From a virus, in IMG/VR virus record IMGVR_UViG_3300045946_000018, positions 27,272-91,271 of that record: a stretch of 64,000 nucleotides of DNA. One strand, 5' to 3'. A program made the position numbers and the translations under genes. The notes below the pieces were generated by a model. It was not told the DNA's origin, did no database searches, and was given only the letters and a program-made list of their open reading frames with translations. Below, in pieces: positions 5,772 through 60,769 of the stretch. Each line of letters begins with the position of its first letter. The stretch's first letter is position 1.

Positions 5772-6971
5772 ATGGCGAGACACTTGAGTAATTTCCTGGA
5801 TGCTTATCTCTACTTTACCGAAGAAACTGAGCCATGCGAGCTTTACCGCAAGTGGGTAGGAGTCAGCATTATTGCTGCAGCATTGCAGCGGAAATGTTAC
5901 TTGCATTGGGGCTCGCAGATTTGGTATCCTAATCTGTACATAGTATTAACCGGTCCTCCAGGTGAGCCGCGTAAGGGTACAGCTATGGCTTCTGGCTACA
6001 GCATTCTGAGACCGCTCAATCTAAAGCTATCTGCAGACCGACTGTCACCTGAGTATTTTATAAAAGAACTCAGTGCCTCACTCACTACAACGCAGCTGGG
6101 CAATGGTAAGTTTATAAATCACTGCAGTATGACAATCTTCAGCAGTGAGTTGACAGTATTTCTGGGATATAAGAACTCGCAGTTCTTAGCTGATTTAACT
6201 GACTTGTATGATTGTAAGGATCCATGGGCGTACAGGACTAAAAATAGTGGGCACTTTGAAGTAACAGGTGCATGGCTAAATATGTTGGCTGCAACCACAC
6301 CTGAGCAAATACAAGCAGCATTGCCAATTGAAGCAATAGGAGGTGGCTTTGCAAGTCGAGTGTTATTTATATTCGCTGATAGGAGAGGTAAAACTGTCCC
6401 TATGCCAATAGAGAACGAAGAACTTAAGGCGAAATTAAGAAGCGATTTAGAAGAGATTTCGTTGTTAGCTGGTCCATTTGTTGCTACAGAAGATTACATA
6501 CTCACTCGCACTGAGTGGTATTTGAACGAGTCTCAGGAGAACCAAATAATTCAGGATCCAAGATTCGCTGCGTATTATAGCAGGAAAGCGAGCACTGCAA
6601 CAAAGCTCAGTATGATACTCTGCGCGTCACGTAGCGACGATATGAAGCTGAGAGGTGAGGATTTCGTTAACGCAATCGATATGCTTAATGAAGCTGAGAT
6701 ACAAATGCCACGTGCATTAAGTGGCGTTGGTAGGAGTGATTATGCTGAGCTGCTTCCAATGGTAATGGAAGAAATACTGAGACATAAAGAGGTGACTATA
6801 AGGTATTTGATGAACCGATTTTCGCACGATACGACGTACTTCCATTTGATTAAGATGGTAGAAACACTTGAGATTATGGGCGTTTTGAGTTACGCTCCAT
6901 TAACTAAGAAGATATATGCGAATCCTAACTTCGGGAATAGTTCGAGTGGAGAAAGTGCGGTTGTCAATTGA
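5772..6971 (+). CDS. DUF3987-like P-loop ATPase (putative replicative helicase)
   Basis: YPNLYIVLTGPPGEPRKGT Walker-A-like, LTDLYDC, GGFASR; homologue 53123-54283. Confidence 0.65.
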   Translation: MARHLSNFLDAYLYFTEETEPCELYRKWVGVSIIAAALQRKCYLHWGSQIWYPNLYIVLTGPPGEPRKGTAMASGYSILRPLNLKLSADRLSPEYFIKELSASLTTTQLGNGKFINHCSMTIFSSELTVFLGYKNSQFLADLTDLYDCKDPWAYRTKNSGHFEVTGAWLNMLAATTPEQIQAALPIEAIGGGFASRVLFIFADRRGKTVPMPIENEELKAKLRSDLEEISLLAGPFVATEDYILTRTEWYLNESQENQIIQDPRFAAYYSRKASTATKLSMILCASRSDDMKLRGEDFVNAIDMLNEAEIQMPRALSGVGRSDYAELLPMVMEEILRHKEVTIRYLMNRFSHDTTYFHLIKMVETLEIMGVLSYAPLTKKIYANPNFGNSSSGESAVVN

Positions 6972-7115
6972 GGCCGGAAGACTCCGCTGGACCGCTGCTG
7001 ATTATAGCACTTACGTTGCCTAATGCTGTCAAGGACCCGCTACGCTGGGGATCCTTGACAGCGGCAACTCCAGTGCAGAGAGTAGACGCGGTCCGGCGGA
7101 AAAATCTGCCGGCCT
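6971..7115 (-). promoter_or_regulatory. Rod-like hairpin element with minus-strand TTGACA (7027-7032), 20 nt, TATAAT (7001-7006)
   Basis: Nested stems 6971-77/7109-15, 6983-95/7088-7100, 7025-35/7052-62; GCGTAGC apex on minus strand. Confidence 0.7.
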
Positions 7116-7184
7116 GGAAGTATGGAGAGTTGCTGGCAGCCGCACTCCCGTTGGTCGTGAGTATGGTTAAAATCTAACCATAAA

Positions 7185-10100
7185 CTATCTTCTCTCACGT
7201 CTCTCTGAGCGTTCACGTCTCGCTCCTCTTGTTGGCTCCTGCGAATACCAGCCCATCAAACTGTCGTAAACATTCTCACCGCGCTTTTGTGCTCTAGTAA
7301 ACTTACTTATTTGACGGGTGCCAGGTACACCTAAAAGTGTAGCTGTTGGTTCCCACCACGGCGGGCTGAGTGGATCATTTCTGTAGGCGCGTGCAGCATC
7401 TCGTGCTGTTTCTATTGCAGGCCCGGCTATTCCTTTACCGTACCTCATGCCACCTATAATAGGCAGTCTCTCTATTTGTCCTACCGCCAAATCAAGCGCA
7501 AGTTGTGGTAGTGAATGTCTAGCCTGCATTCCTTTCCGCACATCTTCAACAGGATCAGGTAACGCTGGTTGAATGTGCAGCAGTTTGTACAACTCGTTAA
7601 TGATCTGGGTGATGATGAGGAATCCAATTACGTTGCGCATAAATCTCATATTACTGCGTGGTGCTCCAGGCTCTTCCCAACTGCCAGGACCACTGGCTAC
7701 TCCACCTGGAGGTATCTGCCCACCACCTCCACCACCAATCTTACCTTTAGTGAGCACTTCGTCTCGCAGGAAATTGAAGTCACTAATCAAGAACGTCTGG
7801 AATTGCGTGACAAGTTTACCTAATGGGTTACGCTGTATGCCTGCAAGATCGCCTGGCATCGTACTTCCTTGCGTACGCACCACAAGATCGTCTGCGTAGC
7901 GTACAGCATCCTTATGATTGTATCCGACCTTCGGACTCGTGGCGAACTTGTAGCCGGCGTTCCACGTAACAAGTGCAGCTTCCATATCCAGCAATTCAAT
8001 CAGCTTGAATCCTGGCCGGCCAACCATTTGCTGCAGTTCAGCTAAGTTACCTCTGCCTAAGGCACGAAATAATTCTCCTGGTCGTCTACCTACGAATGCA
8101 CTAGTAACTTCATTGTAGGCATCAATGAACTTACGTGAGCTGAGTATCTCACTGTTACGTAATGCGAAATCCTTCTTCTTGCCTAGTGGTAAATCGGCTA
8201 ACATCTCGAATGCTGATCCTAGTGTCTTTGGTATACCAAGTGTTTGGCTAGTATTTACCAATGTAGACAGCTGGATTGTACCTGATCTTATAAGCCCAGA
8301 TAGTGTAGCGTACGCAACGTTCTTGTTGACAGTATTTAGTATCATCCGCTGCGTTGCAGTGAATTGCTTGTTTGTACCGGTTGCAATATAGTCAGTCCAG
8401 TTACGTAGCTCTTCATACAGGCCTGGTTTATTGTCCTTAAGTTGCCACGTCTCTTTACCAGTAACAGGATCAGGTAAGTTAGTTTCAATAAGCTCATGCA
8501 TCTTCGCAATGAATGGACTCATGTGAATGTCCTTCAGCGCCGATTGAGCATAAGTATCAAGTATTTTTAGTGCGTTCATTTCGGCCGTGTAGAATGCATG
8601 CTTGCGTACAATGTACGGGAAGTTTGTTGCTCGATGTTTGATGTACTTTGCGTGCACAGAATCGGAAGTATCGCGGGCAAGATCTACTTTAATACCAAGC
8701 GCATTCAGCACGTTTATTGTGCGCGCGAAGGTTTGGTAGTCATCCACTCGTGCAAGTGGCTCACGTCCAGTTGCAGCACGTACTTCATTTACTCGATTAT
8801 ATAAGTAAGCATAAACACCATCAAGATTTGCCTGCAATCGCCGCTCAGCAGAAGTAAGCGGCTGAGGTGTGACCTTATTATATGTAAGTATTCGTTGCCC
8901 GTCTCCACCTTGACGCGCATAACCATTAGCGCCAATATTCTCTAGTGATTTTGAACTGAAGCCACGACCTAATTCTTCCATATCTGCGTGTAAAGTATTC
9001 AGCTCGGCATTCAGGTTCTTTTGTGCAGTGCGATACGCATAGTAGAGAAATTCTGTACCTGCTGCTTTGTGCTGGCGCAATGGTAGCTTTAAGTTCCACT
9101 CACCACCACCCGGCTTAATGTCACGTGCATTCTGAATGCCTCGCACCTCACTCTGCCACAAAGGTACGTACGTATTGCCACTTGCAACGCGCTGCTTAAC
9201 AACTCTATCTCCTGGAATTACGTTCTCAGGATCGAAGCGCATATTACGCGGATTCGTTGAGTTTGGAGGTTCAGGATTATTGATACCTTCTAGGTACCGC
9301 TCAAACATTGCTACATCTTCAGGACGTGCACCAAACAGAAATTCTCGTACGTTCTTTCCTGCCTTACGCATATCAGCTTGCAATCGCTGAGCGGCCATAC
9401 GTGCTTCACGAGACCAGTTACCTCCTATTGCACCTTCCTCACCAAGCATAGTATTCACATCATTCAGTATATCTATGAACGCCCTACGCTCAGACGTGTC
9501 AATGCCAGCTCTTGCTGATTCGCGCATAGCTTTGTAGTGAGGTATCAAATCAGCCGGCAATTTATCTGTAATATCCACGCCTTGCTCTATAGCACGTAAC
9601 ATTTCTTCTATTTGTTCCGGACCAATAGGTGATGTTTTACTCTCAACGTATGCACCTGCAGCGTCCTTAGAAATCGGGACAGCTCGTAGATCGTCACCAC
9701 TGTTAAGACGAGCATCAGTCCTGACAACGTCCTTAGGAACGAGTTCATAGTTCCTGCCCTTCATTACGTATAAATCAAGGTCATTCTCTGCAGCAACACG
9801 AGTTGCTTCACGTATCAGTTCTTGGCCAGTAAACTCATGTGCACGCTCGATTGGTAGACCAGTAAAATCAGCTTGTGCTTGTAAGGAACGTTTTAATACC
9901 TGCCCTAATTCAGGGCTCGTTCTTCCTCGCTGTATCTCAAGCTCAATATTTGCAAGTGATGTACGGGCGTTCATTCCTCTAGTATCAACGAAAATAGCAT
10001 CAGGCCTGCCTTCTATAGTACGTACTTGTATTGGTGCTGATGATATAAGCTCTGTGTACTTAAAGGGTAATATAGATGCCTTAGCACTGGGTTCTAAATT

Positions 10101-12722
10101 AGTAACGGATTTTATTTCAGTGAAACCAACATTCGTGACTACAGGACGGGTATATGCATAGTAAGCTGTATCCGCCGTACGTCTTGCTACATCTTCAGGC
10201 AGTCCCATACTGATAAGAGTTTGTCTCAGTTGTGATGGTCGCACTCCTTTACTAAAAGCATCCATGACGTCGGCCAGATTCATGCCTATTTGCTGCAGTG
10301 TTTCTTGAATTTCTTCTTTAAATGACTCTACATTCTTACGCACGGCGCGTTCTTCAAAAACGCTTTGTTCTGCTGCGGCACGTGATTCTGGAGTACTTGT
10401 CTCATATATAGGTCTACGAGTGGGCCTATTTATAAGAGGCTCTGTATCTGGCGCTTTCACTACCTTACGTTTACGTTTAGGCTTCTCAATGACAGGAGAT
10501 GTATCTATTACTGGTTCTGCAGGTGCAGGTATTTCTACTTCAGTTCCTGCCGGTGCGTTTTCTAGTACAGCTTCAGTTGCTGCTTGCTGAACAGCTGGCT
10601 TATTGACGGTATAATAACGAGTGTAATTACCTTGCTTTACTTGAGTTATACTACCTTCATTCAGAAGATTTTGAATTGCTTCATTAACTTCACTACGTGC
10701 AAACCCCACTCTATTTACTATAGCTTGTATTGTAGCCCCACCTTCCCGAGATAGAAAATCCCTCACTGCTCCACTAACATCTGAAACTGGCATTTCAGAT
10801 AGCTCAGATAAACTGCTCTCCACAATTCCTCTTTCAGACTTCGCAGCGCGTACTTTTTTAAGTTGTGGTATTAACTCCTGAATTGTTTCCTCATCTACAC
10901 CAAGCTGCCGTAATCCACGCTCTACGCTTTTCGCGTCAGTATTAAGAGCTTCACGTTTCAAGTTTGCTAACGACGTTTTACGATCAGCTGGACTTGTTTC
11001 CTCATTTTGAATTGCTTCTATTGCCGCGAACGCAGGCCCTCTATATTCAGTGCGAGTAGGAGTTATTACTTCTGGAGCCGTAGGCGATACCGCAGCTACT
11101 GCTGGAGTCTCGGGTGAAACTGGTGCTGGTACAGTTTCAGGAGCAACAGTAGCTGCAGCCTCAACACGTGGTGTTTCGATAGGTGCAATTTCACGAGTCG
11201 GTCTTGGTGCCTCAGGCGTAACAGGAGCTAAAGCTGTCTCACCTCGCACTACAACTTCAGGCTGCACTGGCCGCTCAGCAGTCATAGTTGGTGCTGCACG
11301 CTGAGGTTCAGGTGCGCGTTGAGCTTGAGGCTCAGCTGACCTTGGTGCTTCAGGTGTAGGAGCAGCAGGTCTTGCAGCTTCAGGCGTTGGTGTTGGGCGC
11401 GTAGGCTCAGCAGGAGCTCTAGGTGTACCTTGTGGTTTAGGTACGCGGCCTAAGCGCTCTCGTAAATCCGTCATGATACTGCCTCTATTTGGATCAGCTG
11501 CCCATTCATCCGTTACACGATCTAGCTCTGATTTGTACGCACGCAATTCAGCTGGATCATATACTATATCTGCAGCAGCTCCACCACCAGCTGGCCCTTC
11601 ATCCGGCGGCTTAGGTCCTCGTGGTGGCATGCCGACTTCACGATCAGCTTCATCTCTAAACTTTCCACGAGCTTCTTCAAGCGCGTTATTTAGTCGAGGA
11701 TTTTTTGATGCTGCATTCGCAAGATCTTCTGCAGCTGCTGCGGCTTGCGCGTCAGTTGTAGCACGTGACATACGAGTTTTGTATTCAGCAATCTTTGAGC
11801 GTATTTCTGGAGCAGCTTTGCGTACGCCCTGATCTAGCTTGTAGAATAGATAAAGTTCAGTGGCAAAGCTAAGCACTCGAGCTGTATCCTCGTTAAGTAC
11901 GCCTGTTGCCACAAGTGCGCGACCAGGTAGTTCAGCTACATCCTTAATTAAACCGGTTACAGTGCCTACAGCTTTATTTACGTTCTTTGCAATATCTGAG
12001 CGTGGTTCAGGAGTTAGTGACGTAATGCGCTGATCCATTCGGTTGAATATATCACGGTAATGAGTTTTACTTTCGGGCCCACCGGCCATTGGTCCGCCAC
12101 GTGCAACACGTGCAAGTTGAGTATTCAAAATATCGCTAACTGCAGTTGCAGCACCAAATGCAAATGCTCCAGCACCGGCGAGTACATTACCACCAGCTTC
12201 GGCAATATCGCGCACAAAATTCGTGGATCGTTGCAGCGTACCATATAATCCAGGAGAGTATTGTCGCGTCGGCGTTGCTCCTGGTGCTCCAGGCTGAAGG
12301 TCACGTCTGCTAGTATAACGCTGTGACTCTGGAGCTTGAGTAGGAACTGTGCGAATTCCACTAAAACTTCCAGTGCCGGTATATTCGCGTGTTGTATCTG
12401 GTACTAATTTTTCAGCTACCGATCCAATAGCTGAACCAACATCACTTGCTATTTTGCCAGGATCTATACTAGGTAGATAGCCAGAAATTCCTGTGCCTGA
12501 TGGTTCTGCAGGCGGCACGTATTGAGGCGGCAATTGACCAGGGCTGAGCCTCTGCTCAGCGGGTAAGCCGCTATTATAGTTATTTAATAATGCTTCATTC
12601 AAGTCCGGCTTCTTAGGAGCAAGCGGCGTTTTGCCTATTCCTAAGCGTCCAAGTAATTCTTCATTTTCTGGCTCACCTTGAAGAAGGTAGCGTTCTACGT
12701 CAATAGGTGCGACTGTTGACAT
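7185..12722 (-). CDS. Large putative internal virion / DNA-ejection protein (1845 aa)
   Basis: Last gene of structural operon; Pro/Ala-rich linkers; C-terminal ADD.V..TQGS...R...G....QFQTF shared with 54335-59521. Confidence 0.65.
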   Translation of the reverse strand: MSTVAPIDVERYLLQGEPENEELLGRLGIGKTPLAPKKPDLNEALLNNYNSGLPAEQRLSPGQLPPQYVPPAEPSGTGISGYLPSIDPGKIASDVGSAIGSVAEKLVPDTTREYTGTGSFSGIRTVPTQAPESQRYTSRRDLQPGAPGATPTRQYSPGLYGTLQRSTNFVRDIAEAGGNVLAGAGAFAFGAATAVSDILNTQLARVARGGPMAGGPESKTHYRDIFNRMDQRITSLTPEPRSDIAKNVNKAVGTVTGLIKDVAELPGRALVATGVLNEDTARVLSFATELYLFYKLDQGVRKAAPEIRSKIAEYKTRMSRATTDAQAAAAAEDLANAASKNPRLNNALEEARGKFRDEADREVGMPPRGPKPPDEGPAGGGAAADIVYDPAELRAYKSELDRVTDEWAADPNRGSIMTDLRERLGRVPKPQGTPRAPAEPTRPTPTPEAARPAAPTPEAPRSAEPQAQRAPEPQRAAPTMTAERPVQPEVVVRGETALAPVTPEAPRPTREIAPIETPRVEAAATVAPETVPAPVSPETPAVAAVSPTAPEVITPTRTEYRGPAFAAIEAIQNEETSPADRKTSLANLKREALNTDAKSVERGLRQLGVDEETIQELIPQLKKVRAAKSERGIVESSLSELSEMPVSDVSGAVRDFLSREGGATIQAIVNRVGFARSEVNEAIQNLLNEGSITQVKQGNYTRYYTVNKPAVQQAATEAVLENAPAGTEVEIPAPAEPVIDTSPVIEKPKRKRKVVKAPDTEPLINRPTRRPIYETSTPESRAAAEQSVFEERAVRKNVESFKEEIQETLQQIGMNLADVMDAFSKGVRPSQLRQTLISMGLPEDVARRTADTAYYAYTRPVVTNVGFTEIKSVTNLEPSAKASILPFKYTELISSAPIQVRTIEGRPDAIFVDTRGMNARTSLANIELEIQRGRTSPELGQVLKRSLQAQADFTGLPIERAHEFTGQELIREATRVAAENDLDLYVMKGRNYELVPKDVVRTDARLNSGDDLRAVPISKDAAGAYVESKTSPIGPEQIEEMLRAIEQGVDITDKLPADLIPHYKAMRESARAGIDTSERRAFIDILNDVNTMLGEEGAIGGNWSREARMAAQRLQADMRKAGKNVREFLFGARPEDVAMFERYLEGINNPEPPNSTNPRNMRFDPENVIPGDRVVKQRVASGNTYVPLWQSEVRGIQNARDIKPGGGEWNLKLPLRQHKAAGTEFLYYAYRTAQKNLNAELNTLHADMEELGRGFSSKSLENIGANGYARQGGDGQRILTYNKVTPQPLTSAERRLQANLDGVYAYLYNRVNEVRAATGREPLARVDDYQTFARTINVLNALGIKVDLARDTSDSVHAKYIKHRATNFPYIVRKHAFYTAEMNALKILDTYAQSALKDIHMSPFIAKMHELIETNLPDPVTGKETWQLKDNKPGLYEELRNWTDYIATGTNKQFTATQRMILNTVNKNVAYATLSGLIRSGTIQLSTLVNTSQTLGIPKTLGSAFEMLADLPLGKKKDFALRNSEILSSRKFIDAYNEVTSAFVGRRPGELFRALGRGNLAELQQMVGRPGFKLIELLDMEAALVTWNAGYKFATSPKVGYNHKDAVRYADDLVVRTQGSTMPGDLAGIQRNPLGKLVTQFQTFLISDFNFLRDEVLTKGKIGGGGGGQIPPGGVASGPGSWEEPGAPRSNMRFMRNVIGFLIITQIINELYKLLHIQPALPDPVEDVRKGMQARHSLPQLALDLAVGQIERLPIIGGMRYGKGIAGPAIETARDAARAYRNDPLSPPWWEPTATLLGVPGTRQISKFTRAQKRGENVYDSLMGWYSQEPTRGARRERSERRERR

Positions 12723-12731
12723 TTACGTTTC

Positions 12732-12898
12732 CTCTGCTAGCGGCATTTCTCCCTGCAGGTGCAAGAGAGTGTAGTTCCTTTGTGGAGAACCTGCTAGAGA
12801 AAAATGCGGGGCCATTTTTCTCTTGCAGAACCTCCAGTCGTCACAACACGGGAATTGCCCCTGCTGGGAAAATGCCATCGCGCCGGTAGCACAAGAGA
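12732..12898. repeat. Rod-like imperfect inverted repeat
   Basis: ggcattt/aaatgcc, gcagg/cctgc, gtagttcc/ggaattgc, agagaaaaatg/catttttctct nested stems. Confidence 0.7.
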
Positions 12899-12971
12899 GA
12901 TCAGCGGCACTAGGGCTCCCGTTGGTCGCAGCTTCATCTCCAGCTATGGTTAAAATCTAACCGTAACAATC

Positions 12972-14000
12972 TTACTCTTTGGGCCTGAGTTTCCAGGGTA
13001 TCGGCTGCTTTAAGCTTGGATAAAATACTTGCTCAAGGTATTGTTGCACGTTCATTGCGCCACTAGGGTAATTCTGAGCTGCGTCATAAACCTCTTGGGC
13101 CGTATAGCGATGACCATCTACAGTAGGCAAATCTATCTTCTTCATTCGAGTACCTGAATAGATGCGGCCAGGATTATCCTCAAAGATATACACGTACGGC
13201 TGTTTGCTTGTCGCATGAAACAGCTCAGCTTCAGGTGCTAATTCACTCTCATCGTACGAGTTCTGTAGTGCATAGCCACCAGGTCTCTTCGAGCGTAGAT
13301 TCTGTTCTGCATCTGTTGCTACTTTCATCTCAGTGCGAGCATCCGTGCGCGCTTTAGCTATTTTCTCTGCACGCTCTTTCTCGAGCTGCATCATCTTCTG
13401 TATATTCTCGTTACGCTCTTGAGCAAGTGTCATTCCTTTGGCTGAGAACTCCTGACCACCGATCTTCAGCTTTACGTATTCATCATTCTGTTTATCTAGC
13501 AGTGCAGCCTCTCTCGGATACAGTTGACGGATGCGCTCAGCATTGGCATTGCTGGCATTAACAGCTGCCATACTTTGCTCAATATTAGCTCGTATGTTCT
13601 GCTTCTCTAAACCGAGCAGCTCAGTAACGCGGTTTGATTGTGCTTGATACAGGCCTGTCTGTGCACGCTCCTGTGCAACGCGTTCTGGCAACAGTGTTTC
13701 GGTACTGATTCGCTGAGCACGACTCGCACCAGCTGCTTCACGTGACTGGTCAATATCCGCAAGCATCTTAGCGGCAATGTGAGGCTCTTCTGCACGTAAC
13801 CGTGCTGCCTGCGCTTTATTCAAATCACCTGAAGTTTCACGGTACGCAATCTCACTTTGTACATTACGTGCCTGTATAATGTCCTGCACGCTGCGTAGTC
13901 GCAGTGCTTCTCGTTCTGTGTCGAGTCGGCCCATAGCTGCAACCTGTTCTGGATTAAGCCCCGCAAGACTTCCACTTTCAAATCCTCCGGGGCTTAGTAG
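12972..14000 (-). CDS. Putative ejection protein, C-terminal part, probably reached by -1 frameshift from 13994-14554
   Basis: Frame open from the slippery site to ATG 13934; AGLNPEQ upstream of the ATG is conserved as AGLTPEQ in B. Confidence 0.7.
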   Translation of the reverse strand, partial: LLSPGGFESGSLAGLNPEQVAAMGRLDTEREALRLRSVQDIIQARNVQSEIAYRETSGDLNKAQAARLRAEEPHIAAKMLADIDQSREAAGASRAQRISTETLLPERVAQERAQTGLYQAQSNRVTELLGLEKQNIRANIEQSMAAVNASNANAERIRQLYPREAALLDKQNDEYVKLKIGGQEFSAKGMTLAQERNENIQKMMQLEKERAEKIAKARTDARTEMKVATDAEQNLRSKRPGGYALQNSYDESELAPEAELFHATSKQPYVYIFEDNPGRIYSGTRMKKIDLPTVDGHRYTAQEVYDAAQNYPSGAMNVQQYLEQVFYPSLKQPIPWKLRPKE

Positions 14001-14006
14001 AAAGGG
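13955..14006 (-). promoter_or_regulatory. -1 programmed ribosomal frameshift signal
   Basis: C CCT TTC (14006-14000) in frame 0 then 9-bp stem taagccccg/cggggctta with inner extension. Confidence 0.8.
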
Positions 14007-29202: not shown

Positions 29203-30477
29203 CTAAGGTAAAGTATTATCTAACCCTACCCCATTTAAATATCCAAATTTAATCGGATGGTGAAATTCTAGTCCACATTCCGTAAGCCATTCCTCCTTAG
29301 TTCCATCAAGTCTCTCATGCGATGGACTAACTTTATTTGTATCCATTCCCATAAACATAGTATCATCGATATACCGATACTTCAACATACTCGCTTCGAA
29401 GATAAGCATAGCATTCCGCGTTGTAGCATCATAACTGAACAGCGGATGTGTCCATAGACTAATAGTTCCAAACGGCGTTACCCAATTTACCACTTTAATT
29501 CCATACGAAGTAGTTTGCGGTGTAAAATTAAATTGGCCCACGTTTTTAGCCAACTTATTTATACCCAAAAGTGCCCCCGAACCAACAAATGCAATTTTAT
29601 CCATCGAACCAAATCGAAAAATAAGCTCAAATTTCTCATCTAACCACGCTTCGCCACCAGTAAGCCAATCCATAGTTGCATAGTTTGGATCTACTCTATA
29701 ATCCGATACATTTTGTGGTGCAAACTGTTTTACCGCATAAGTCAATCCACCCGTAGTACGTTCTGGTTTACCATTCGAGCCAACATTCTCTGTTGGTATG
29801 CCGAACAAAAACGCCTTTTCCATTTCAATTGAATGAAGTTCAAGCGATTCACGCTTCGCCTCTTTATACGCGTCTTCGGTGCGAAGTGTCGTTTTCCTTG
29901 CAGTGCGAGTAATATCGAGTGGAGTACGAAAAATTTGTGTGTAATTCAAATACTTTATCGGATCGTAAGCAATTGCGTTTGGAATAGCCGCACCTTCAGC
30001 GTTAATATTACCCACGATCAAGATTACATCCGCAGTCGAAAGGTTAGTCGCACCACCATTATCGTCTGCTTCGAGCAATTTCACCGCAATTTGTGAATCT
30101 GCACCATTAAGTGTAACTCCAGTTACTTTCGCATTTACATCAACATTAAGATTTGTCGAAACCCGAAGTAAAACTTGATGTCCAATTCGAAATTCAGTTG
30201 CGAGTAATTGCGCAACTTTTGCGTACAAAAGTGTACCCGCGGCAGAACCGCCAGCAGCCAGCGCGGTAGTCATTGCAGCATCCGTATAAAGTTCGGTAAT
30301 TGCTCCGCCCTGTTGCGCCAAATTCTTCGTCCACCAATGAAATTGGGGATCAGTAGTAGTTTCTTCTCCCATCTTCGAAAGTAAGCCAGTTAACGGCGCC
30401 CTTCCGTTTGGATAAAGGTACAAAATTCCTTGGCGCCAGTTCAAAGGTCTTTCGTCAGGTGCCCAGTTGCCGGTTCC
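29203..30477 (-). CDS. Major capsid protein, exon 2 (mature protein 431 aa with exon 1)
   Basis: NYTQIFR, EMEKAFLFG, RTTGGL, WLTECGLEF capsid motifs; follows portal and scaffold. Confidence 0.9.
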   Translation of the reverse strand, partial: GTGNWAPDERPLNWRQGILYLYPNGRAPLTGLLSKMGEETTTDPQFHWWTKNLAQQGGAITELYTDAAMTTALAAGGSAAGTLLYAKVAQLLATEFRIGHQVLLRVSTNLNVDVNAKVTGVTLNGADSQIAVKLLEADDNGGATNLSTADVILIVGNINAEGAAIPNAIAYDPIKYLNYTQIFRTPLDITRTARKTTLRTEDAYKEAKRESLELHSIEMEKAFLFGIPTENVGSNGKPERTTGGLTYAVKQFAPQNVSDYRVDPNYATMDWLTGGEAWLDEKFELIFRFGSMDKIAFVGSGALLGINKLAKNVGQFNFTPQTTSYGIKVVNWVTPFGTISLWTHPLFSYDATTRNAMLIFEASMLKYRYIDDTMFMGMDTNKVSPSHERLDGTKEEWLTECGLEFHHPIKFGYLNGVGLDNTLP

Positions 30478-31273
30478 CGGAATTGTTACTCCTACGAGTT
30501 TCCCAACCTTTACTCGCAGGGGACGAGTCATTTCTGCTCGCCTCTTCTTGTTGCCAAGAAGCCCAGACTATATTACCGATAGACGTATCGCTATCGCCGC
30601 CTCTTCCGAGTTTATAGAGCATTGAGGGAACTACATATGGTTCGATTAAAGCGAAAAAAGTTTCAATATCTTTATTTCGCAATCTTAATCGAAATCCTTG
30701 GCCCTTACCGGGAGTGGCGTTAATTCTAAATATAATTCCAAATTTATCCACCACATGTTTGGTAAAAGCTTCCAACTCAAATATACTATGGTTCAGCGTA
30801 TAAATTAGCACATTTCTATCGGCTTGGTTTCTACTATTAGTAGTAGAAAGTGTGCCATCATCTTGATAGAGTATAGCTAATCCAATTGGACCTAGTATAG
30901 AAATAGCGTGTTTACTCATCGTTTTCTGTCCGCTAAGATACAAATTATTTCGTATCTTAGTAAACCACGGATGAGCACTGGAGCGAAGACGTAACATCTG
31001 TTTTCGTCCATAGTGATTCAAGGATGATTCGCTCGTATTTTGCTCTTTTATACTAAATCCAGTGAAGCGGTCAATAATTGCAGCTTTCCACATAAGATAA
31101 TCCGTGTGATCTACCGTATGAGAAACGGATAATTTACAATTACCTCGTTCCGGTTTCTCCACATGGCCATCACCTAAGATCATCCAGTAAATTGCTTCGG
31201 TGACTTCTTTTATATTGAACGCTTCCGCTGCTATCGTCATAGTAATTAACGCCTCAAAGCTCGTATCACTCAT
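30455..31273 (-). CDS. Intron-encoded LAGLIDADG homing endonuclease
   Basis: Two motifs IYWMILGDGHV and LAILYQDDGTL; YLMWK, IEPYVVPSMLYKL. Confidence 0.88.
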   Translation of the reverse strand: MSDTSFEALITMTIAAEAFNIKEVTEAIYWMILGDGHVEKPERGNCKLSVSHTVDHTDYLMWKAAIIDRFTGFSIKEQNTSESSLNHYGRKQMLRLRSSAHPWFTKIRNNLYLSGQKTMSKHAISILGPIGLAILYQDDGTLSTTNSRNQADRNVLIYTLNHSIFELEAFTKHVVDKFGIIFRINATPGKGQGFRLRLRNKDIETFFALIEPYVVPSMLYKLGRGGDSDTSIGNIVWASWQQEEASRNDSSPASKGWETRRSNNSGNRQLGT

Positions 31274-54334: not shown

Positions 54335-57300
54335 TTACCTTACCCCACCTAAACTCGGTCGATCATCCCGATTAGATTTAAACGATTGTGTGTTCTTCTT
54401 CTCTGGCGCGAAGAACATCTTATCTATTTGCAGTCCACCAGGCACTAAACTGCGCAGAACTGTTCTAGGTAAACTTGTACCTTCTTCACCAATTAATGCT
54501 CGGCCCATACTCGAAATAAATCCCGCTGTTGGTCCTCCGAGCTGCCCGCCTCGAACTTTCAGCGAACTAGCAAATGGAATAATCTTAGCCGCCTCACCCA
54601 ACGTACTACCAAGCCCAAGCTCAACGAGATAACTTAACTCGCTCTGATTCGGCTCAGGTCCACGCAATAATGTCCGTGTAAATGCTAAAGGCGGATTTGG
54701 CAGAGGTGATGTACCCTCGCCCATATCTTCCATTAGGAAGTTGAGTATAGTTCCAGCACCAAGAAACTTTAGCACATTACCCACCACCTGTTTATTGGTC
54801 ATATTTTTGTTAGCTATACCCAACACTTGACTGGTTATCATATCATAATTATTAATCGCAAATGTTTGAAACTGCGTTAGTGCACGACCCCACTGCTTAC
54901 GTTGAATTGGAGCACGCTCACCGCGAAGTGCACTGCCTTGAGTTAGCGTAACTGCATCGTCCGCTATATTAAATGCAGCTTCGCCAGTTTTACCCGCCTT
55001 CAGCGCGAAATCATATCCAACATCCCAACTAATATCTGCAGCAATTTGGTCAGTAAATCTAAGCCCCCGTGTACCTACATCACCAAGGTATGTGCTAGCT
55101 CGCTGTGCGGCCTCTCCTGCGCGTCGAGTCAATCTATTCTGCTGGAGTAAATTTTCTAATACTCCCGCGCCAGCTTCATCAAAGTATATATCCGGATTAC
55201 GCACGTCCAAACTTTTAGAATGTTCCCGCCTAAATTTCATCTTAGGATGACCCGGCGTAGCTAAATCGGCCATATATCCCAATGTAGCTTGGATTGTTCT
55301 ACCATAACCATACAGCTGCCCTGTGTTTAGCAGGCCCAATGGCTGAATAGCTATGGAAGATATATTACCTGCTATTTGCGAATTACCTAAACTTCGACCA
55401 ATTGAGAATAGTATACTGTTCCAGGGTGATGGAATAGATTGTTCAGGCTTACCTGCGATGTGATTATTCCACTCACTTATCACCTTGTACAGTTCAGGCT
55501 TCTCCACCGACATACGCCAAGTATTACCCGTAGTTGGATCAATAATAGGCGTGTCGATTAATTCGTGCACTTTAGCTACGAATGGACCCAAGTGTATTTG
55601 TCGCAGCGCATAATCTACATAATTCTCTAGTATATCAAACACGTTCATCTCAGCTGGAAATACACCACCTCGCCTAGTACGCTCCATTGGAAATGGGGTG
55701 TTCTTTAAATTTGCGAAGCGTTGGTTCTGCAAAGCTGCAGTGTCCTCAACAATGCTAGTTTTTATACCAAATGCTTCATCTAAATTAGTCGCACGCATAT
55801 GAGTAATATAGTGTGTTACATAGTCCATCGGACCTCGACCGGTATTAGATCTCACTTCCTGTGCACGTCCAAACAAATCGTCGAATATACCCCGAACAAA
55901 TGCTTCAACAGTTAATTCCTTTGCTGTAATTGGTCGAGGTTCTACATTCGATTCAATTAAAAGATCAATCGAACCTTCATTCAAGAACATATCCGCCCCA
56001 ATTGCGCGCTGTTGTTCCTCAGAGAATTGGCGTCGGATACGCTTAATTGCCTTCATATAATCTGCGCGATCCTTAATTAAATTTTGCTCCACTCCTCTAT
56101 ACGCATGTACAATATCACCCTGACCAGCGGCAAGTAGCTTACGTGCTAAAGTCTGGAAACTTTCAGGCCGAGTCACCTTCTGAAAATTAGTTAGCTGTGC
56201 TCGCGGAGTTAAATCATCTACCGAAGCTACCGCAAACCAATCGTTAAAATAAATCTCTGGTCTGTGCGTACCATCAACTTCGCCTTTCGTACGCTTTATA
56301 ACAAAGTCTCCGCGTAGCGAAGCCTCACTATCGAAGCCCATATTATTTAGGCTCATGTAAGGCTTAGGCGGAGGTGATTGCGATGATCTATTGTACTCCT
56401 CATAGATGGCTTTTTGGATTTCATTTAATCTTGGGTCGCGCCTAATTATTTGCATTATATCTTTACCAAATCGAATCGCATCATTCTTCAATTCATTAAA
56501 TGCCATACGCTGCTCTGGACCAATACCACCAGGATAAAATGCACCGAGAGTAGTTTCATCAGGCGTGGGGACTAAATTTTTAATCGACCGAAGTATTTGG
56601 TTATACGTGCGTCGATTCGGTGTTTCAATCTGGTCAGTGTGATACTTTAAAGCTCGGCGGTAAAGTTCACCAAGTTTAGGCGGCAACTCCGCGCTAATAT
56701 CTACACGATTCTCTAAATTCTGTTTGATTTGCTCATAAGTGTATGGGATAGTTTCGTGCTCGCCTGAAGCAACATATTCTGCACGTTGCTGTTGAGTTAA
56801 ATCCTTGGGTTGGCTCAAGTTACCGTCATTTAATTTTGCCGTTGCTTCAGTCAACCCGGTTGAATGATTACGCAGATAGTTCTGAGCATAGCTTGCTAGA
56901 GCTTCCGGAGTTTGCGGTATCTTACTAGACTCCGCACTCATAGCATTAAATTGTTGTTCAGTTAACTCGATTCCCTTTTGGCGTAAAAAGCGCGCTATAA
57001 CTAAATCTGGTTGAGGTACGCCATTAATAGCCGTAGCATTTCGCTGATATTCTTGGAATCGCGTAGGAGTTACAACTGCTTCAGTTGCAGGAGCACTAAT
57101 TTCCGAACGTAGAGTTTCTGGTTTAACGCTCAACCTTTCCGCAATACCTTGTATCATACTGCGCGCATCATTACGTTCACGTAGCGGCGCATTAGGATCA
57201 TTCAATATTCTATTTGCTTCATCGAGTACACCTTGCTGTTCAGGAGTAATTTTATTCGCTATAAGTTCCGGGCCAACTAAACCTGTCTTTTGTATCCGCG

Positions 57301-59521
57301 CACGAAGTGTCTTTACAGCAAGATCAGTTGAAGCGGCAGTATCATCTAAGAATCTGCGCGCCTCTGCCAGCGCTGTTTCACTATTGGGATTTCTAAATAA
57401 TGCGTCTAGTATATCACGTGCGCGTGTAGCAAAATCACCTTGACGTGTAGGTAACACAGGTTCACTCGGAGCCACGGGCCTGGAAGGAGGTTCTTCAACT
57501 ATAGTACGCGGTATAGTTGGTGCAGCTTGCCGTGGTCTACCAACAACAGTTTGACGCATAGCAGGTAAAAAATCAGCTATGTATTGTTCTTCCACGCCTA
57601 ACTTACGCAATCCCGCCTCGACATTACCAGGGACAGCTCGAAGAGCTTCGCGTTTTAAATCGCTCAATGCAGCACCACGAGTTTGTAACGTACTATCATT
57701 GCTAAGTAAAACATCAAGCGCGTCGCTAACTACTTGCTCAGGAGTACGCACTCTGGTTGGTATGCGCTCACCAGCTAAAGGTGCCGCAGCTCCAGTTGGC
57801 GCAGTTGGAGTAGGCGTAGGTGTTGGTGTAGGTTCAACTGGTAAAGGTTCCGGTGGTGGTTCAGGCGGACGTTCGCTGGGTAATATATTCCGCATGCGCG
57901 GTTCAAGTCGAGCAACAATTGCCTCATCTAATCCAAGTTTATCTAATCCACCCGCCTCTTGAGCACGCAACTGCAACTCACGCATAGCACCAAGGCGTGC
58001 TTGTGCAGAGTAACGTTGGTCATAAATCCGCTCAGCTAATTGCTGAGGATTTAATTGATTAGCTACCGGAGTAAAATCTTCAACCGTCATACCGCGCACA
58101 GGAGTACGACCAGTAACAGTTTGTATTGGTTGAATATCAGGCAAGTCTAAAGCCGCATTTAATACTGTATTAAACATTGGACCAAAATCACGTATAATAT
58201 CATCGGGTAAGCCAAGTCCACGCAGGCCCGCTTCTAAATTTCCTGGACTAGTTACATTAGCTTCACGCATTATCCGCCGCGCCGCGTTCATCTGTGCGCT
58301 TGGCGGTTGATTCGGATCCATCATAACATCAAACGCATCTAAAATATAATTAGAGAACATTCCAGGTGGACGAGCACGCGGTACCGCAGATTCAATTGGC
58401 GGTAAAACTTCAGGTTCAGTAGGTACAGTTGGTACAGCACGCCTAGGCTGGTCTGGTACGTTGCGTCGTGTTACTGATATATCACGGAGTCGCGGGGTAA
58501 GGTAATTAATAGTTGTTTCACCATAACCAAGCTCGGCTAATCTCTCCGCTGTAGTACCAGGCGATGTAGCGTTATAAATTGCACCTTTAAGTTGGCGTAA
58601 ATTTTGTGTTAATTGCATTCCACGCAACTCGCCACCCTGAAGTTCATCTAAAAGCGGATCAATTATTCCACGCGCCGCCATTAAAGCATCTGCTCGAATA
58701 TTTCCAGTGATTAAATTTTGTTCCCGAGTTCGTAATGTACCAAGTAAACGGTTCCTAGCTGCAGTTAATTCTTCTTGACTAATTTTAGAAAGAAGTTCGT
58801 TAGTATTAGCTTGTATTCTTACATTATCACCTAACTCCATAGCTTGCATTAAATCAATCGCAGCGCGCCTGTTAGCTCTATGTACACGACCGAACGCACG
58901 ATCAGTAAGAATCATCGCAGCAATTTCAACACCAGCACCAACTGCACCAGCAATTTCAGGCGAAAAGCCAAGATCAATTGCTTTCTTAGATGCAGCAGTT
59001 GCCGCGCCTTGAACTAACGCAATTGGTGCGAGTGCTATATCCGATCCAATTTGGCCTAATCTAGTACGCGGTTGGTACGTATATTGTTGCGTAATATTTT
59101 CAAACGGAGCAATATCGGGTGTATCGGGTAAAGATAGTGCGCCTTCATCATACAAGCGTTTTAAATAACTTAGTGCGCTACCCACACTACCAGCTACATA
59201 TGCAGCACCACCAGTTAATGCCTGCGCACCAACTTCAGCATACGGATTAAACCTCAGCGCACCCAGTGGTTGCGCGCGTGAAGGTAAAACAGTACTTATT
59301 GCTTGACCAGCTGCGGCTGGTATATCACGTATAGCTTGGGGAACAGTAAACGAAGTTTTAGGCGCTTGAGGAAGCTGGATATCTTTATTTAACTCTAAAT
59401 TATATAAAGCTCGCTCTACAAGTTGCGCTTCTTCATCATCAAATACGCTTGGTGGTTGGGTGGTCTTTCTATTCATTCGTTCAAATATTACACTTTCTAA
59501 ACTTGGAAATACAGTTGCCAT
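54335..59521 (-). CDS. Large putative internal virion / DNA-ejection protein (1728 aa)
   Basis: C-terminal half homologous to 7185-12722 (AEMN, IH..PF.AK.HELI, QFQTF). Confidence 0.65.
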   Translation of the reverse strand: MATVFPSLESVIFERMNRKTTQPPSVFDDEEAQLVERALYNLELNKDIQLPQAPKTSFTVPQAIRDIPAAAGQAISTVLPSRAQPLGALRFNPYAEVGAQALTGGAAYVAGSVGSALSYLKRLYDEGALSLPDTPDIAPFENITQQYTYQPRTRLGQIGSDIALAPIALVQGAATAASKKAIDLGFSPEIAGAVGAGVEIAAMILTDRAFGRVHRANRRAAIDLMQAMELGDNVRIQANTNELLSKISQEELTAARNRLLGTLRTREQNLITGNIRADALMAARGIIDPLLDELQGGELRGMQLTQNLRQLKGAIYNATSPGTTAERLAELGYGETTINYLTPRLRDISVTRRNVPDQPRRAVPTVPTEPEVLPPIESAVPRARPPGMFSNYILDAFDVMMDPNQPPSAQMNAARRIMREANVTSPGNLEAGLRGLGLPDDIIRDFGPMFNTVLNAALDLPDIQPIQTVTGRTPVRGMTVEDFTPVANQLNPQQLAERIYDQRYSAQARLGAMRELQLRAQEAGGLDKLGLDEAIVARLEPRMRNILPSERPPEPPPEPLPVEPTPTPTPTPTAPTGAAAPLAGERIPTRVRTPEQVVSDALDVLLSNDSTLQTRGAALSDLKREALRAVPGNVEAGLRKLGVEEQYIADFLPAMRQTVVGRPRQAAPTIPRTIVEEPPSRPVAPSEPVLPTRQGDFATRARDILDALFRNPNSETALAEARRFLDDTAASTDLAVKTLRARIQKTGLVGPELIANKITPEQQGVLDEANRILNDPNAPLRERNDARSMIQGIAERLSVKPETLRSEISAPATEAVVTPTRFQEYQRNATAINGVPQPDLVIARFLRQKGIELTEQQFNAMSAESSKIPQTPEALASYAQNYLRNHSTGLTEATAKLNDGNLSQPKDLTQQQRAEYVASGEHETIPYTYEQIKQNLENRVDISAELPPKLGELYRRALKYHTDQIETPNRRTYNQILRSIKNLVPTPDETTLGAFYPGGIGPEQRMAFNELKNDAIRFGKDIMQIIRRDPRLNEIQKAIYEEYNRSSQSPPPKPYMSLNNMGFDSEASLRGDFVIKRTKGEVDGTHRPEIYFNDWFAVASVDDLTPRAQLTNFQKVTRPESFQTLARKLLAAGQGDIVHAYRGVEQNLIKDRADYMKAIKRIRRQFSEEQQRAIGADMFLNEGSIDLLIESNVEPRPITAKELTVEAFVRGIFDDLFGRAQEVRSNTGRGPMDYVTHYITHMRATNLDEAFGIKTSIVEDTAALQNQRFANLKNTPFPMERTRRGGVFPAEMNVFDILENYVDYALRQIHLGPFVAKVHELIDTPIIDPTTGNTWRMSVEKPELYKVISEWNNHIAGKPEQSIPSPWNSILFSIGRSLGNSQIAGNISSIAIQPLGLLNTGQLYGYGRTIQATLGYMADLATPGHPKMKFRREHSKSLDVRNPDIYFDEAGAGVLENLLQQNRLTRRAGEAAQRASTYLGDVGTRGLRFTDQIAADISWDVGYDFALKAGKTGEAAFNIADDAVTLTQGSALRGERAPIQRKQWGRALTQFQTFAINNYDMITSQVLGIANKNMTNKQVVGNVLKFLGAGTILNFLMEDMGEGTSPLPNPPLAFTRTLLRGPEPNQSELSYLVELGLGSTLGEAAKIIPFASSLKVRGGQLGGPTAGFISSMGRALIGEEGTSLPRTVLRSLVPGGLQIDKMFFAPEKKNTQSFKSNRDDRPSLGGVR

Positions 59522-59548
59522 ATTAGCACCTTACATTTTTAATGTTTC

Positions 59549-59717
59549 GCACCAAGGGGTCCCCCGTAATTTGCTTTGCTGCTTGACAAGCGAGTCGCAC
59601 AGTTATATTGCCAGCAAGGCGCCTCCTTCGATCGTCGCCCCAGCTGGCAATCGTAACTGTGCTTGCGCTAACGCTTCCTCGCTTGTAAAGCATCGCAAAT
59701 TACGAGCCCCTAAGTGC
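59549..59717 (-). repeat. Rod-like hairpin element, family 3
   Basis: cgtaatttgc/gcaaattacg, gcttgacaagcgag/ctcgcttgtaaagc, gcacagtta/taactgtgc, attgccagc/gctggcaat. Confidence 0.85.
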
Positions 59718-59845
59718 TACACGCTGGAATAAAATCAGCGAATTAAAATTTTATCACTGGAACCTGTTCACCAAAGGTGAACACCGTGGGCGGGGTGCCG
59801 TGCAAGCACATAAAGTCCTCGCAATTAAAATTTTATCAATGCAGG

Positions 59846-60763
59846 CTAATCGCGTAATTCCTTCGGCGCTGGTTGCTTGGCCATATCTTCCCAAACATGG
59901 AGTAAAAACTCCTGAAAACTTCTCCCGCCACGCAATTGCCTATTATTAAACATAATCATTAGTTCGCGTGCGGTTAACTGCTCTATCGCGTCAGTACCGG
60001 GCTTCTTTAGTTTAGGCAACGGAATTTTTACAGCAGTACCAGGTGCGCGTCCAGCAAATGGATTATACGCATTTGGATTAAATACGCTACGCCCACCCAC
60101 TTTTGGTAAGTACGCGTAATCCGCCCTTGAGCGAGTGTTAAATATATTTGCCTGTGATGTTACATCTTCCCCCTCTTTAGGATTTTGTATTATACCCTCC
60201 GCTTTAGCCGCCTGATCTTCATCGCGCTGTATATCTTCACGCTCTTGTCGCTGTATTTGATTGCGCTGGAATTCGGTTAATCCACCACTCTCACCACGCG
60301 ACCCCAGAGAACGAATTAGCGCTTCGAGATACTGCGTCGAAGGTACTTTGAATTTACGCCCTTGATCGTCTTCTAGTTCAATAGTGGCTTTACCTTGCTC
60401 AATATCTTGGCGTAATTTATTTATCTCCTCCACTAGTTTCTCTTTAGGCAAGGTGCCCAACATTTTAGCCAGTTCAACTCTTTGCCGAGATTCAGCCGCT
60501 TGAGCATTACGCAGATCAGTTTCAGCTTGTTGTGCTTCAGCAGCACCAGGCATAAGCTGGCGTAACCTCTCGGCCTGCTGCTCGTCAAGCAATCCCGCAT
60601 CTTCGAGCCTATTAATCTGTGCCATATTAACGCCAGCATCAAACAAACTACCCACGCTCCTCTGGCGTAATTGTTCTAACGCTATATCACGCGAAGCAAC
60701 TTGGTTAATTTGTTCTGGTGTAAGCCCGGCTACAGATACGCTTCCTGCACCCGGGCCAGCTAA
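59846..60763 (-). CDS. Putative ejection protein, C-terminal part reached by -1 frameshift
   Basis: 36 open codons between slippery site and the track's GTG start; AGLTPEQ conserved. Confidence 0.7.
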   Translation of the reverse strand, partial: LAGPGAGSVSVAGLTPEQINQVASRDIALEQLRQRSVGSLFDAGVNMAQINRLEDAGLLDEQQAERLRQLMPGAAEAQQAETDLRNAQAAESRQRVELAKMLGTLPKEKLVEEINKLRQDIEQGKATIELEDDQGRKFKVPSTQYLEALIRSLGSRGESGGLTEFQRNQIQRQEREDIQRDEDQAAKAEGIIQNPKEGEDVTSQANIFNTRSRADYAYLPKVGGRSVFNPNAYNPFAGRAPGTAVKIPLPKLKKPGTDAIEQLTARELMIMFNNRQLRGGRSFQEFLLHVWEDMAKQPAPKELRD

Positions 60764-60769
60764 AAAGGG
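60723..60769 (-). promoter_or_regulatory. -1 programmed ribosomal frameshift signal
   Basis: C CCT TTT (60769-60763) then TAG; stem gcccgg/ccgggc plus tgcagg/tctgta starting about 6 nt downstream. Confidence 0.8.

Follow-up and report, generated by a model that had tools for sequence, protein, structure and literature searches.

A conserved cassette with the anatomy of a programmed -1 ribosomal frameshift signal splits a late-operon gene in a group of uncultured phages

Phages that draw two proteins from one gene by recoding are known from several corners of the viral world, and it is against these that the locus described here must be read. The best-known case is the tail assembly chaperone of long-tailed phages, where the G/GT frameshift, with G and gpGT of lambda as its example, is said to have been laid out by Xu et al. 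in 2004. The capsid gene 10A/10B of T7 and T3 carries a -1 frameshift, and structural genes of the Listeria phages A118 and PSA are frameshifted as well. A proposal from a podovirus, Alteromonas virus vB_AspP-H4/4, places a -1 frameshift at a slippery sequence in genes 39/40, leading into the internal virion protein (PMC5658483); this genome announcement was all that our literature search found on frameshifting in ejection proteins. At the level of the slippery sequence itself, all heptamers have been measured in Escherichia coli, where those of the form H_HH.U_UU.Y were among the most efficient and C_CC.U_UU.C was singled out for its high level of frameshifting (Sharma et al. 2014; PMC4066793). 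Here we analyse a heptamer-and-hairpin cassette that divides a phage gene into an upstream frame (ORF-a) and a downstream frame (ORF-b). The mechanism that it would use is well known; the gene family, the conserved cassette and the existence of both split and unsplit forms of the gene appear to be undescribed in the literature searched.

The cassette occurs twice in a window of 64,000 nucleotides, taken from the IMG/VR virus record IMGVR_UViG_3300045946_000018. Two phage genomes, related but diverged, make up this window: phage A extends to about 37.5 kb, and phage B starts at about 38 kb. Replication and late modules converge in both. The record as a whole, a contig of 91,271 bp of which the window appears to be the final 64 kb, carries the two in tandem at about 45 kb each; since natural genomes of the group measure 42-48 kb, the tandem may have arisen either through chimeric assembly or through co-integration of two phages. 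The features of both copies are collected in the table, together with those of an unsplit relative, locus L016. The frameshift gene is always penultimate in the late operon, directly upstream of a giant ORF of 1577-1845 aa, a synteny common to A, B, L001-L003, L016 and L021. Between ORF-b and the giant gene lie non-coding gaps of 250-320 nt (59522-59845 in B, 12723-12971 in A), and in L016 the homologue of the frameshift gene abuts the giant gene at 7734, without a gap.

Features of the split gene and its surroundings in phages A and B (window coordinates) and of an unsplit homologue (coordinates of its own contig)
Feature	Position	Strand	Remarks
Phage A ORF-a	14554-13994	minus	186 aa; C-terminus ...DIAPFY-TAA
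Phage A slippery heptamer C CCU UUC	14006-14000	minus	3' end reads GCC CCT TTC TAC TAA
Phage A hairpin	13955..13996	minus	9-bp lower and 7-bp upper stem, -25.9 kcal/mol
Phage A -1 frame (ORF-b part)	12972..14006	minus	344 codons; predicted fusion about 527 aa
Phage A giant ORF	7185..12722	minus	1845 aa, downstream of ORF-b
Phage B ORF-a, 0 frame	61869-60760	minus	369 aa, Pro-rich; stop TAG 60762-60760; homologous to phage A ORF-a
Phage B slippery heptamer C CCU UUU	60769-60763	minus	0 frame ..C CCU UUU UAG
Phage B spacer UAGCU, 5 nt	60758..60762	minus	0-frame stop codon inside
Phage B candidate stimulatory hairpin	60757-60723	minus	7-bp lower stem, 1x1 internal loop, 6-bp upper stem
Phage B -1 frame (ORF-b part)	59846..60769	minus	307 codons, heptamer to stop 59846-59848
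Phage B giant ORF	54335..59521	minus	1728 aa, directly downstream, final late-operon gene
L016 unsplit gene	6001-7734		followed by a 1735-aa ORF

In phage B the 3' end of ORF-a reads ...GTA ATC CCT TTT TAG, with the heptamer in the X XXY YYZ register. Shifted back by a single base, the same stretch becomes CCC TTT TTA GCT GGC..., which encodes PF-LAGPGAGSVSVAGLTPEQ and stays open to 59846. ORF-a would by itself be the short product, with a predicted length of 369 aa, and its -1 extension of 305 aa would bring the predicted fusion to 674 aa. The first canonical start in the -1 frame is GTG 60655, which stands 114 nt past the heptamer and 36 codons past the slip, has AGGAG just 1 nt upstream and comes only after the codons for the conserved peptide AGLTPEQ. 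Downstream of the heptamer, the lower stem of the hairpin is formed by GGCCCGG and CCGGGCU, and the whole structure is predicted by folding to be worth -22.2 kcal/mol. As a bare motif the site is not rare, the 10-mer CCCTTTTTAG having 3 matches in the window at no more than one mismatch against 4.6 expected, so the case has to be made on frame, position, structure and conservation and not on the motif alone. The site had been picked out in an earlier reading of the letters, and much of that original prediction stands: the C CCT TTT before TAG is found where it was placed, the 36 open codons that separate the heptamer from the first canonical start agree in both coordinates and peptide, and recomputation of the product sizes returns the same 369 and 674 aa. 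Its stem-loop is present as well, at a distance of 5 nt rather than the 'about 6' first given. The accompanying statement that the flanking proteins of A and B barely align was too strong, for they are diverged yet 35% identical in ORF-a, where both carry the motif MDPxGAGG, and 29% identical in ORF-b. The best-conserved stretch of ORF-b runs from the heptamer to the first start codon (FL..PG...S.S.AGL.PEQ), and the starts themselves do not align, the Met of phage A facing a Val codon (GTT) in phage B.

How widely the arrangement is shared was assessed with relatives retrieved by a peptide-pattern search, a route independent of the frameshift signal, which returned three IMG/VR contigs (45-48 kb), four further distinct metagenome loci and one MAG contig. 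The distinct split loci number ten (A, B, L001, L002, L003, L007, L010, L011, L014 and L021) and represent about six lineages at 25-60% protein identity, so counts among them are not independent. In all ten the split falls at one and the same residue, and the offset is -1 throughout. Nine have the heptamer C CCU UUY, which falls in the most efficient class of -1 heptamers measured in E. coli (PMC4066793), and L021 has A AAC CCU, each of them in the 0 frame; in the nine, the base before the Pro codon is always C, though the codon to which it belongs specifies Ala, Ile or Phe, and Pro is always CCU. Ahead of the heptamer the -1 frame is already open for 2 to 55 codons; the 0 frame ends 0-1 codons past it in eight of the nine loci compared and 11 codons past it in L007. 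In L001 the -1 frame opens only two codons before the heptamer and the 0 frame stops one codon after it, which confines the change of frame to a stretch of about 5 codons. At the protein level, 17 of 22 clusters that contain ORF-a only (50-65% identical to A) end in ...PFY-stop. In P0058, an ORF-a homologue, the stop after ...PFY has been lost and the 0 frame runs 16 codons further (SAPEVSRAEVLRG), so that the arrangement does not depend on a stop codon next to the heptamer. A separate set of ORF-a-only homologues, P0064-P0068, ends in ...LDPYL(P/A)RRS(V/L) and not in ...PFY, which suggests that in their lineage either the junction lies elsewhere or ORF-a truly stands alone.

The one locus with another heptamer deserves a closer look. 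L021 comes from a contig binned with a cyanobacterial MAG labelled Dactylococcopsis, and at L021:2974-3040 its A AAC CCU is directly followed by TAA. Heptamer and stem are both displaced by 3 nt (the stem upstream), which keeps the spacer at 5 nt, and the hairpin, with 11+9 bp, is predicted at -30.7 kcal/mol. Such a replacement of the heptamer at unchanged geometry can hardly be explained other than by selection for frameshifting.

A hairpin begins 5 nt past the heptamer in all ten loci, with predicted stabilities of -18 to -31 kcal/mol. When 11 pairs were scored in a nine-sequence alignment, standard pairs filled 95.9% of cells, against 22-60% in controls in which the 3' partners had been slid, and three stem pairs of the same alignment had changed on both sides. 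The pair formed by the wobble positions of a Pro and an Ala codon, for example, is C-G in five loci, A-U in two, G-C in one (phage B) and U-G in one, and the upper stems, wholly different in sequence in B, the A group, L002, L007 and L010, are paired nonetheless. Because the 3' arm encodes the conserved A-G-L peptide, each native hairpin was also compared with 500 recodings per locus, in which the -1-frame peptide was held fixed and codons were redrawn from the usage of the window. The native hairpin was more stable in seven of nine loci (z -2.2 to -4.8): no recoding out of 500 folded as well in phage A (z = -4.8) and nine did so in phage B (z = -2.2), and the result was weak in L010 (z = -1.4) and L014 (z = -0.9). 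Dinucleotide shuffling gave weak scores for B (z = -1.4) and L003 (z = -0.9). Part of the conservation of the stem is explained by the coding of A-G-L in its 3' arm. A search of Rfam at the frameshift site returned no family. For comparison, one unsplit gene, that of L016, was read as DNA (a single control, n=1); its equivalent region has z = +0.17, a centroid without the hairpin and no significant structure, and the hairpin therefore goes with the split state.

Unsplit relatives show what a joined product looks like. A profile search with ORF-b against 1.84 billion representatives gave 40 relatives, including single-ORF proteins of 372-577 aa that contain both halves, and a query with ORF-a for longer proteins gave three clusters of 512-514 aa; the homologues in a single ORF are P0004, P0044, P0069, P0070, P0023, P0027, P0028, P0033 and P0040. 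Across the junction, the unsplit proteins close to A read ...DI(A/S)PF-LLSPGGFE(A/G)GSLAGLNPEQ, which is exactly what a slip on C CCU UUC is predicted to yield. More distant unsplit homologues have neither the PF nor the heptamer (P0023: ILPLLIGPG). On the evidence of these sequences, some members of the family have the two halves working as one polypeptide, and to obtain it the split clade would need a -1 shift. The in-frame variants among close relatives indicate that the short product may be dispensable, and a shift that is tolerated rather than 'purposeful' is possible. Several searches added nothing to this picture: tblastn of ORF-b against 50,697 phage records and single-protein scans of IMG/VR with P0002, P0004 and P0040 gave no match, and an alignment of 26 sequences was too divergent for a pattern search. 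Two observations at the edges of the family may be recorded here. The unsplit gene of L016 still holds an in-frame C CCT TTA (Tyr-Pro-Leu; L016:6595-6615) with no hairpin after it; ribosomes slipping by -1 at this point would reach a stop three codons on, giving a truncation of the dnaX kind, and the motif may be only a relic. In P0034 and P0041 the junction and roughly the first 45 ORF-b residues (LLPFLLSPGG...AGLTPEQ) are fused to an unrelated N-terminus of Sel1-like repeats and end early, possibly through domain shuffling or in a misassembled contig.

Could the two frames simply be two genes? ORF-b would then be translated by termination-reinitiation (coupling) or from a non-canonical start, and the hairpin would serve otherwise, for instance in mRNA stability or as a pause for coupling. 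L002 has the classical layout for coupling, its ATG overlapping the TGA stop of ORF-a (ATGA), the 0-frame stop follows the heptamer within 0-1 codons in most loci, and public gene callers list ORF-b as a protein of its own. Elsewhere, however, the codon aligned to the ATG of L002 is CUA, UUA or GCU, and in nine of the ten loci not one ATG, GTG or TTG is found from the opening of the -1 frame to the peptide L-x-G-L-x-P-E-Q. The start of ORF-b is unconserved, the first ATG, GTG or TTG falling at +9, +72, +102, +114, +117 or +147 nt from the heptamer, mostly downstream of this best-conserved peptide, and no convincing Shine-Dalgarno sequence precedes these first starts. In public gene calls the start of ORF-b falls at about a dozen different places within the conserved N-terminal region, a scatter that is what gene callers produce after an unrecognised frameshift. 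Stops that have moved away from the heptamer in L007 and P0058, and unsplit homologues in which both parts work as one polypeptide, also count against two genes, which would moreover leave the invariant wobble C and the heptamer unexplained. Separate translation of ORF-b is on this balance improbable, and so is the other employment of the hairpin that it would entail. Stop-codon readthrough was considered as a way of extending ORF-a and rejected, because in phage B a second 0-frame stop follows within 10 codons.

The change of frame might also arise before or apart from translation. If RNA polymerase added or dropped a base in the C/T run, some mRNAs would carry a fused frame; a short homopolymer pair is indeed present at the site (C3-4 T3-5), in-frame variants in related phages differ by one base in the length of the run, and some of these could in principle stem from RNA-derived assemblies. 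Known productive transcriptional slippage needs roughly 7 or more A or T; the runs here are merely 3-5 nt (3 T in A, L001 and L002), L021 has A3C3 and no long run, and a covarying structure at a fixed distance of 5 nt is the signature of ribosomal slippage; we regard slippage of the polymerase as very improbable. A homopolymer run is likewise a typical place for an indel error, so that the split could have been introduced by assembly or sequencing, or could mark a gene broken by a frameshift and heading to loss. The original prediction had argued against such an error from the heptamer, the frame offset, the stem and the AGL(N/T)PEQ peptide that A and B have in common, and eight further loci share the layout. 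The same offset at the same residue occurs in ten loci and 17 protein clusters drawn from JGI, ENA and Logan assemblies, both halves are open and conserved at 29-60% identity, and the RNA structure is under selection. Random assembly indels cannot produce one frame, one residue and one structure across assemblies, and with the compensatory changes in the hairpin and the natural in-frame junctions of relatives added, the argument holds: an artefact or a decaying gene is effectively refuted by conservation across assemblies, and we give it next to no credence.

The cassette is in all probability a programmed -1 ribosomal frameshift signal that yields a short and a long protein with a shared N-terminus. 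The anatomy of the signal, its conservation and its covariation are there to be read directly, as are the want of an alternative start codon and the unsplit homologues with the predicted junction, and from them we infer the slippage itself and the trans-frame protein. A ribosome translating ORF-a would arrive at C CCU UUY with its P site occupied by tRNA-Pro, which reads CCU, and its A site by tRNA-Phe, which reads UUY, at which point the base of the hairpin, 5 nt downstream, would resist unwinding and make it pause; the 0-frame stop, directly or one codon past the heptamer, may add to the pause. Both tRNAs could then slip back by one base onto CCC UUU. Some ribosomes would go on in the -1 frame and complete the a-b fusion, 674 aa in B and about 527 aa in A, while others would terminate and release the short ORF-a protein. 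The two products would have the N-terminal helical domain and the Pro-rich linker in common, and their ratio would be fixed by the signal.

What such a pair of proteins might do has to be approached mainly through its neighbours. Neither ORF-a nor ORF-b has a match in Pfam or PHROGs, and Pfam run on 35 family members gave no recurrent family, with a single match to PF16778 at E = 0.06 that we take as noise. Modelled with AlphaFold, the natural fusion P0004 (mean pLDDT 69) begins with N-terminal helices and a beta-hairpin (residues 10-101), continues through a disordered Pro-rich linker (106-185) with the junction inside it at about residue 168, and then forms a single helix of ~156 residues (186-341). 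After a second helix, the chain closes with a small alpha/beta domain that is modelled confidently, its pLDDT exceeding 90. Foldseek found no match for this model in the PDB or BFVD at E <= 0.001, and a protein atlas offered weak leads only for the frameshift protein, among them Inj_translocase at a score of 0.80, a level often reached by chance. The giant ORFs match phrog_9880 alone, a family of unknown function; they have no Pfam domain above threshold (that of A shows a weak winged-helix match at residues 650-710), and the giant protein has no match in the PDB by sequence. In the atlas they come nearest to clusters of the 'large polyvalent protein' associated domain, a placement that offers no more than a lead, and they may be multi-domain proteins that are injected.

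The rest of the late region helps to place the phages. The portal shares 42% identity with its counterpart in Desulfofustis phage LS06-2018-MD01 and, over 95% of its length, 30% with the portal of Caulobacter phage Kuura, which is a podovirus by electron microscopy (PMC9959647). Genes for a tail tube, sheath or tape measure were not detected in the window, and the group to which A and B belong is probably one of podoviruses. In Kuura, too, the late operon closes in this way, with a transglycosylase of 647 aa and an ORF of 1358 aa that converge on the polymerase module. The syntenic genes of the Desulfofustis phage (487 aa) and of Kuura (647 aa, 356 aa) have no significant profile similarity to the frameshift protein, and no homology or fold similarity to known ejection proteins was found in Pfam, PHROGs or Foldseek (pdb and viral). 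The gene does sit where an ejection protein might, in the distal late operon beside a very large ORF, in A, B, L001-L003, L016 and L021. From this position at the end of the late operon beside a giant polyvalent-like ORF, and not from homology, the frameshift products stand an even chance of being internal virion or ejection-type proteins. A podovirus counterpart of G/GT, in which short and long forms act as a chaperone or scaffold that loads the giant protein into the capsid or helps to eject it, and in which one-base switches between split and in-frame states tune the ratio, is a more speculative idea and on present evidence an unlikely one.

Whatever the role of its products, the gene is at present handled badly by annotation: gene callers split it into two 'hypothetical proteins' with wrong N-termini. 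Recognition of the frameshift corrects the annotation of an uncultured clade of ~45-kb phages from soil, groundwater and sediment and provides a further, well-supported site of recoding in a gene that is neither tail chaperone nor capsid. With its natural controls, namely unsplit homologues and an alternative heptamer at the same spacing, the family also makes a good test case for frameshift-prediction tools. The mechanism is a textbook one, and the conceptual gain will be modest unless the two products have a stoichiometric role with the giant neighbouring protein.

Set beside the systems with which we began, the cassette is closest in architecture to lambda G/GT. In both, a -1 slip occurs at X XXY YYZ near the end of the upstream ORF with the 0-frame stop a few codons on, the short and long products share an N-terminus and are made in a fixed ratio next to a very long gene, and the arrangement is conserved while the sequences diverge. 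The differences are equally plain. The present family has no homology to the tail-chaperone families in Pfam or PHROGs, its products are larger (186-369 aa and 527-674 aa), its giant gene ends the operon with no baseplate genes after it, and it combines a strong conserved hairpin with a podovirus-like phage. A reading of the gene as a tail assembly chaperone was accordingly rejected, both for the missing family homology and for the missing context of major tail and tape-measure genes. With T7/T3 10A/10B and with A118 and PSA the likeness is that recoding of a late structural gene gives rise to a minor form with an extended C-terminus. Here, though, the protein is not the capsid, whose gene lies at 29203-30531, and the extension of 305-344 aa is most of the folded protein rather than a short tail. 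The proposal for H4/4 resembles ours in host virus and in destination, a podovirus and a -1 frameshift into an internal virion protein (PMC5658483). It differs in being a genome-announcement annotation that joins an endolysin ORF to the internal virion protein of a T7-supergroup phage (PMC5658483), in coming without an analysis of conservation or structure, and in having no apparent homology to the present family. Bacterial sites of the E. coli dnaX and IS3/IS911 type, finally, share the heptamer, the spacer of about 5-6 nt and the hairpin or pseudoknot; they differ in that the phage sites have no conserved Shine-Dalgarno-like stimulator upstream, AGGAG being found there only in L002, and in the outcome of the shift, which in dnaX is a truncation and here would be a long C-terminal extension.
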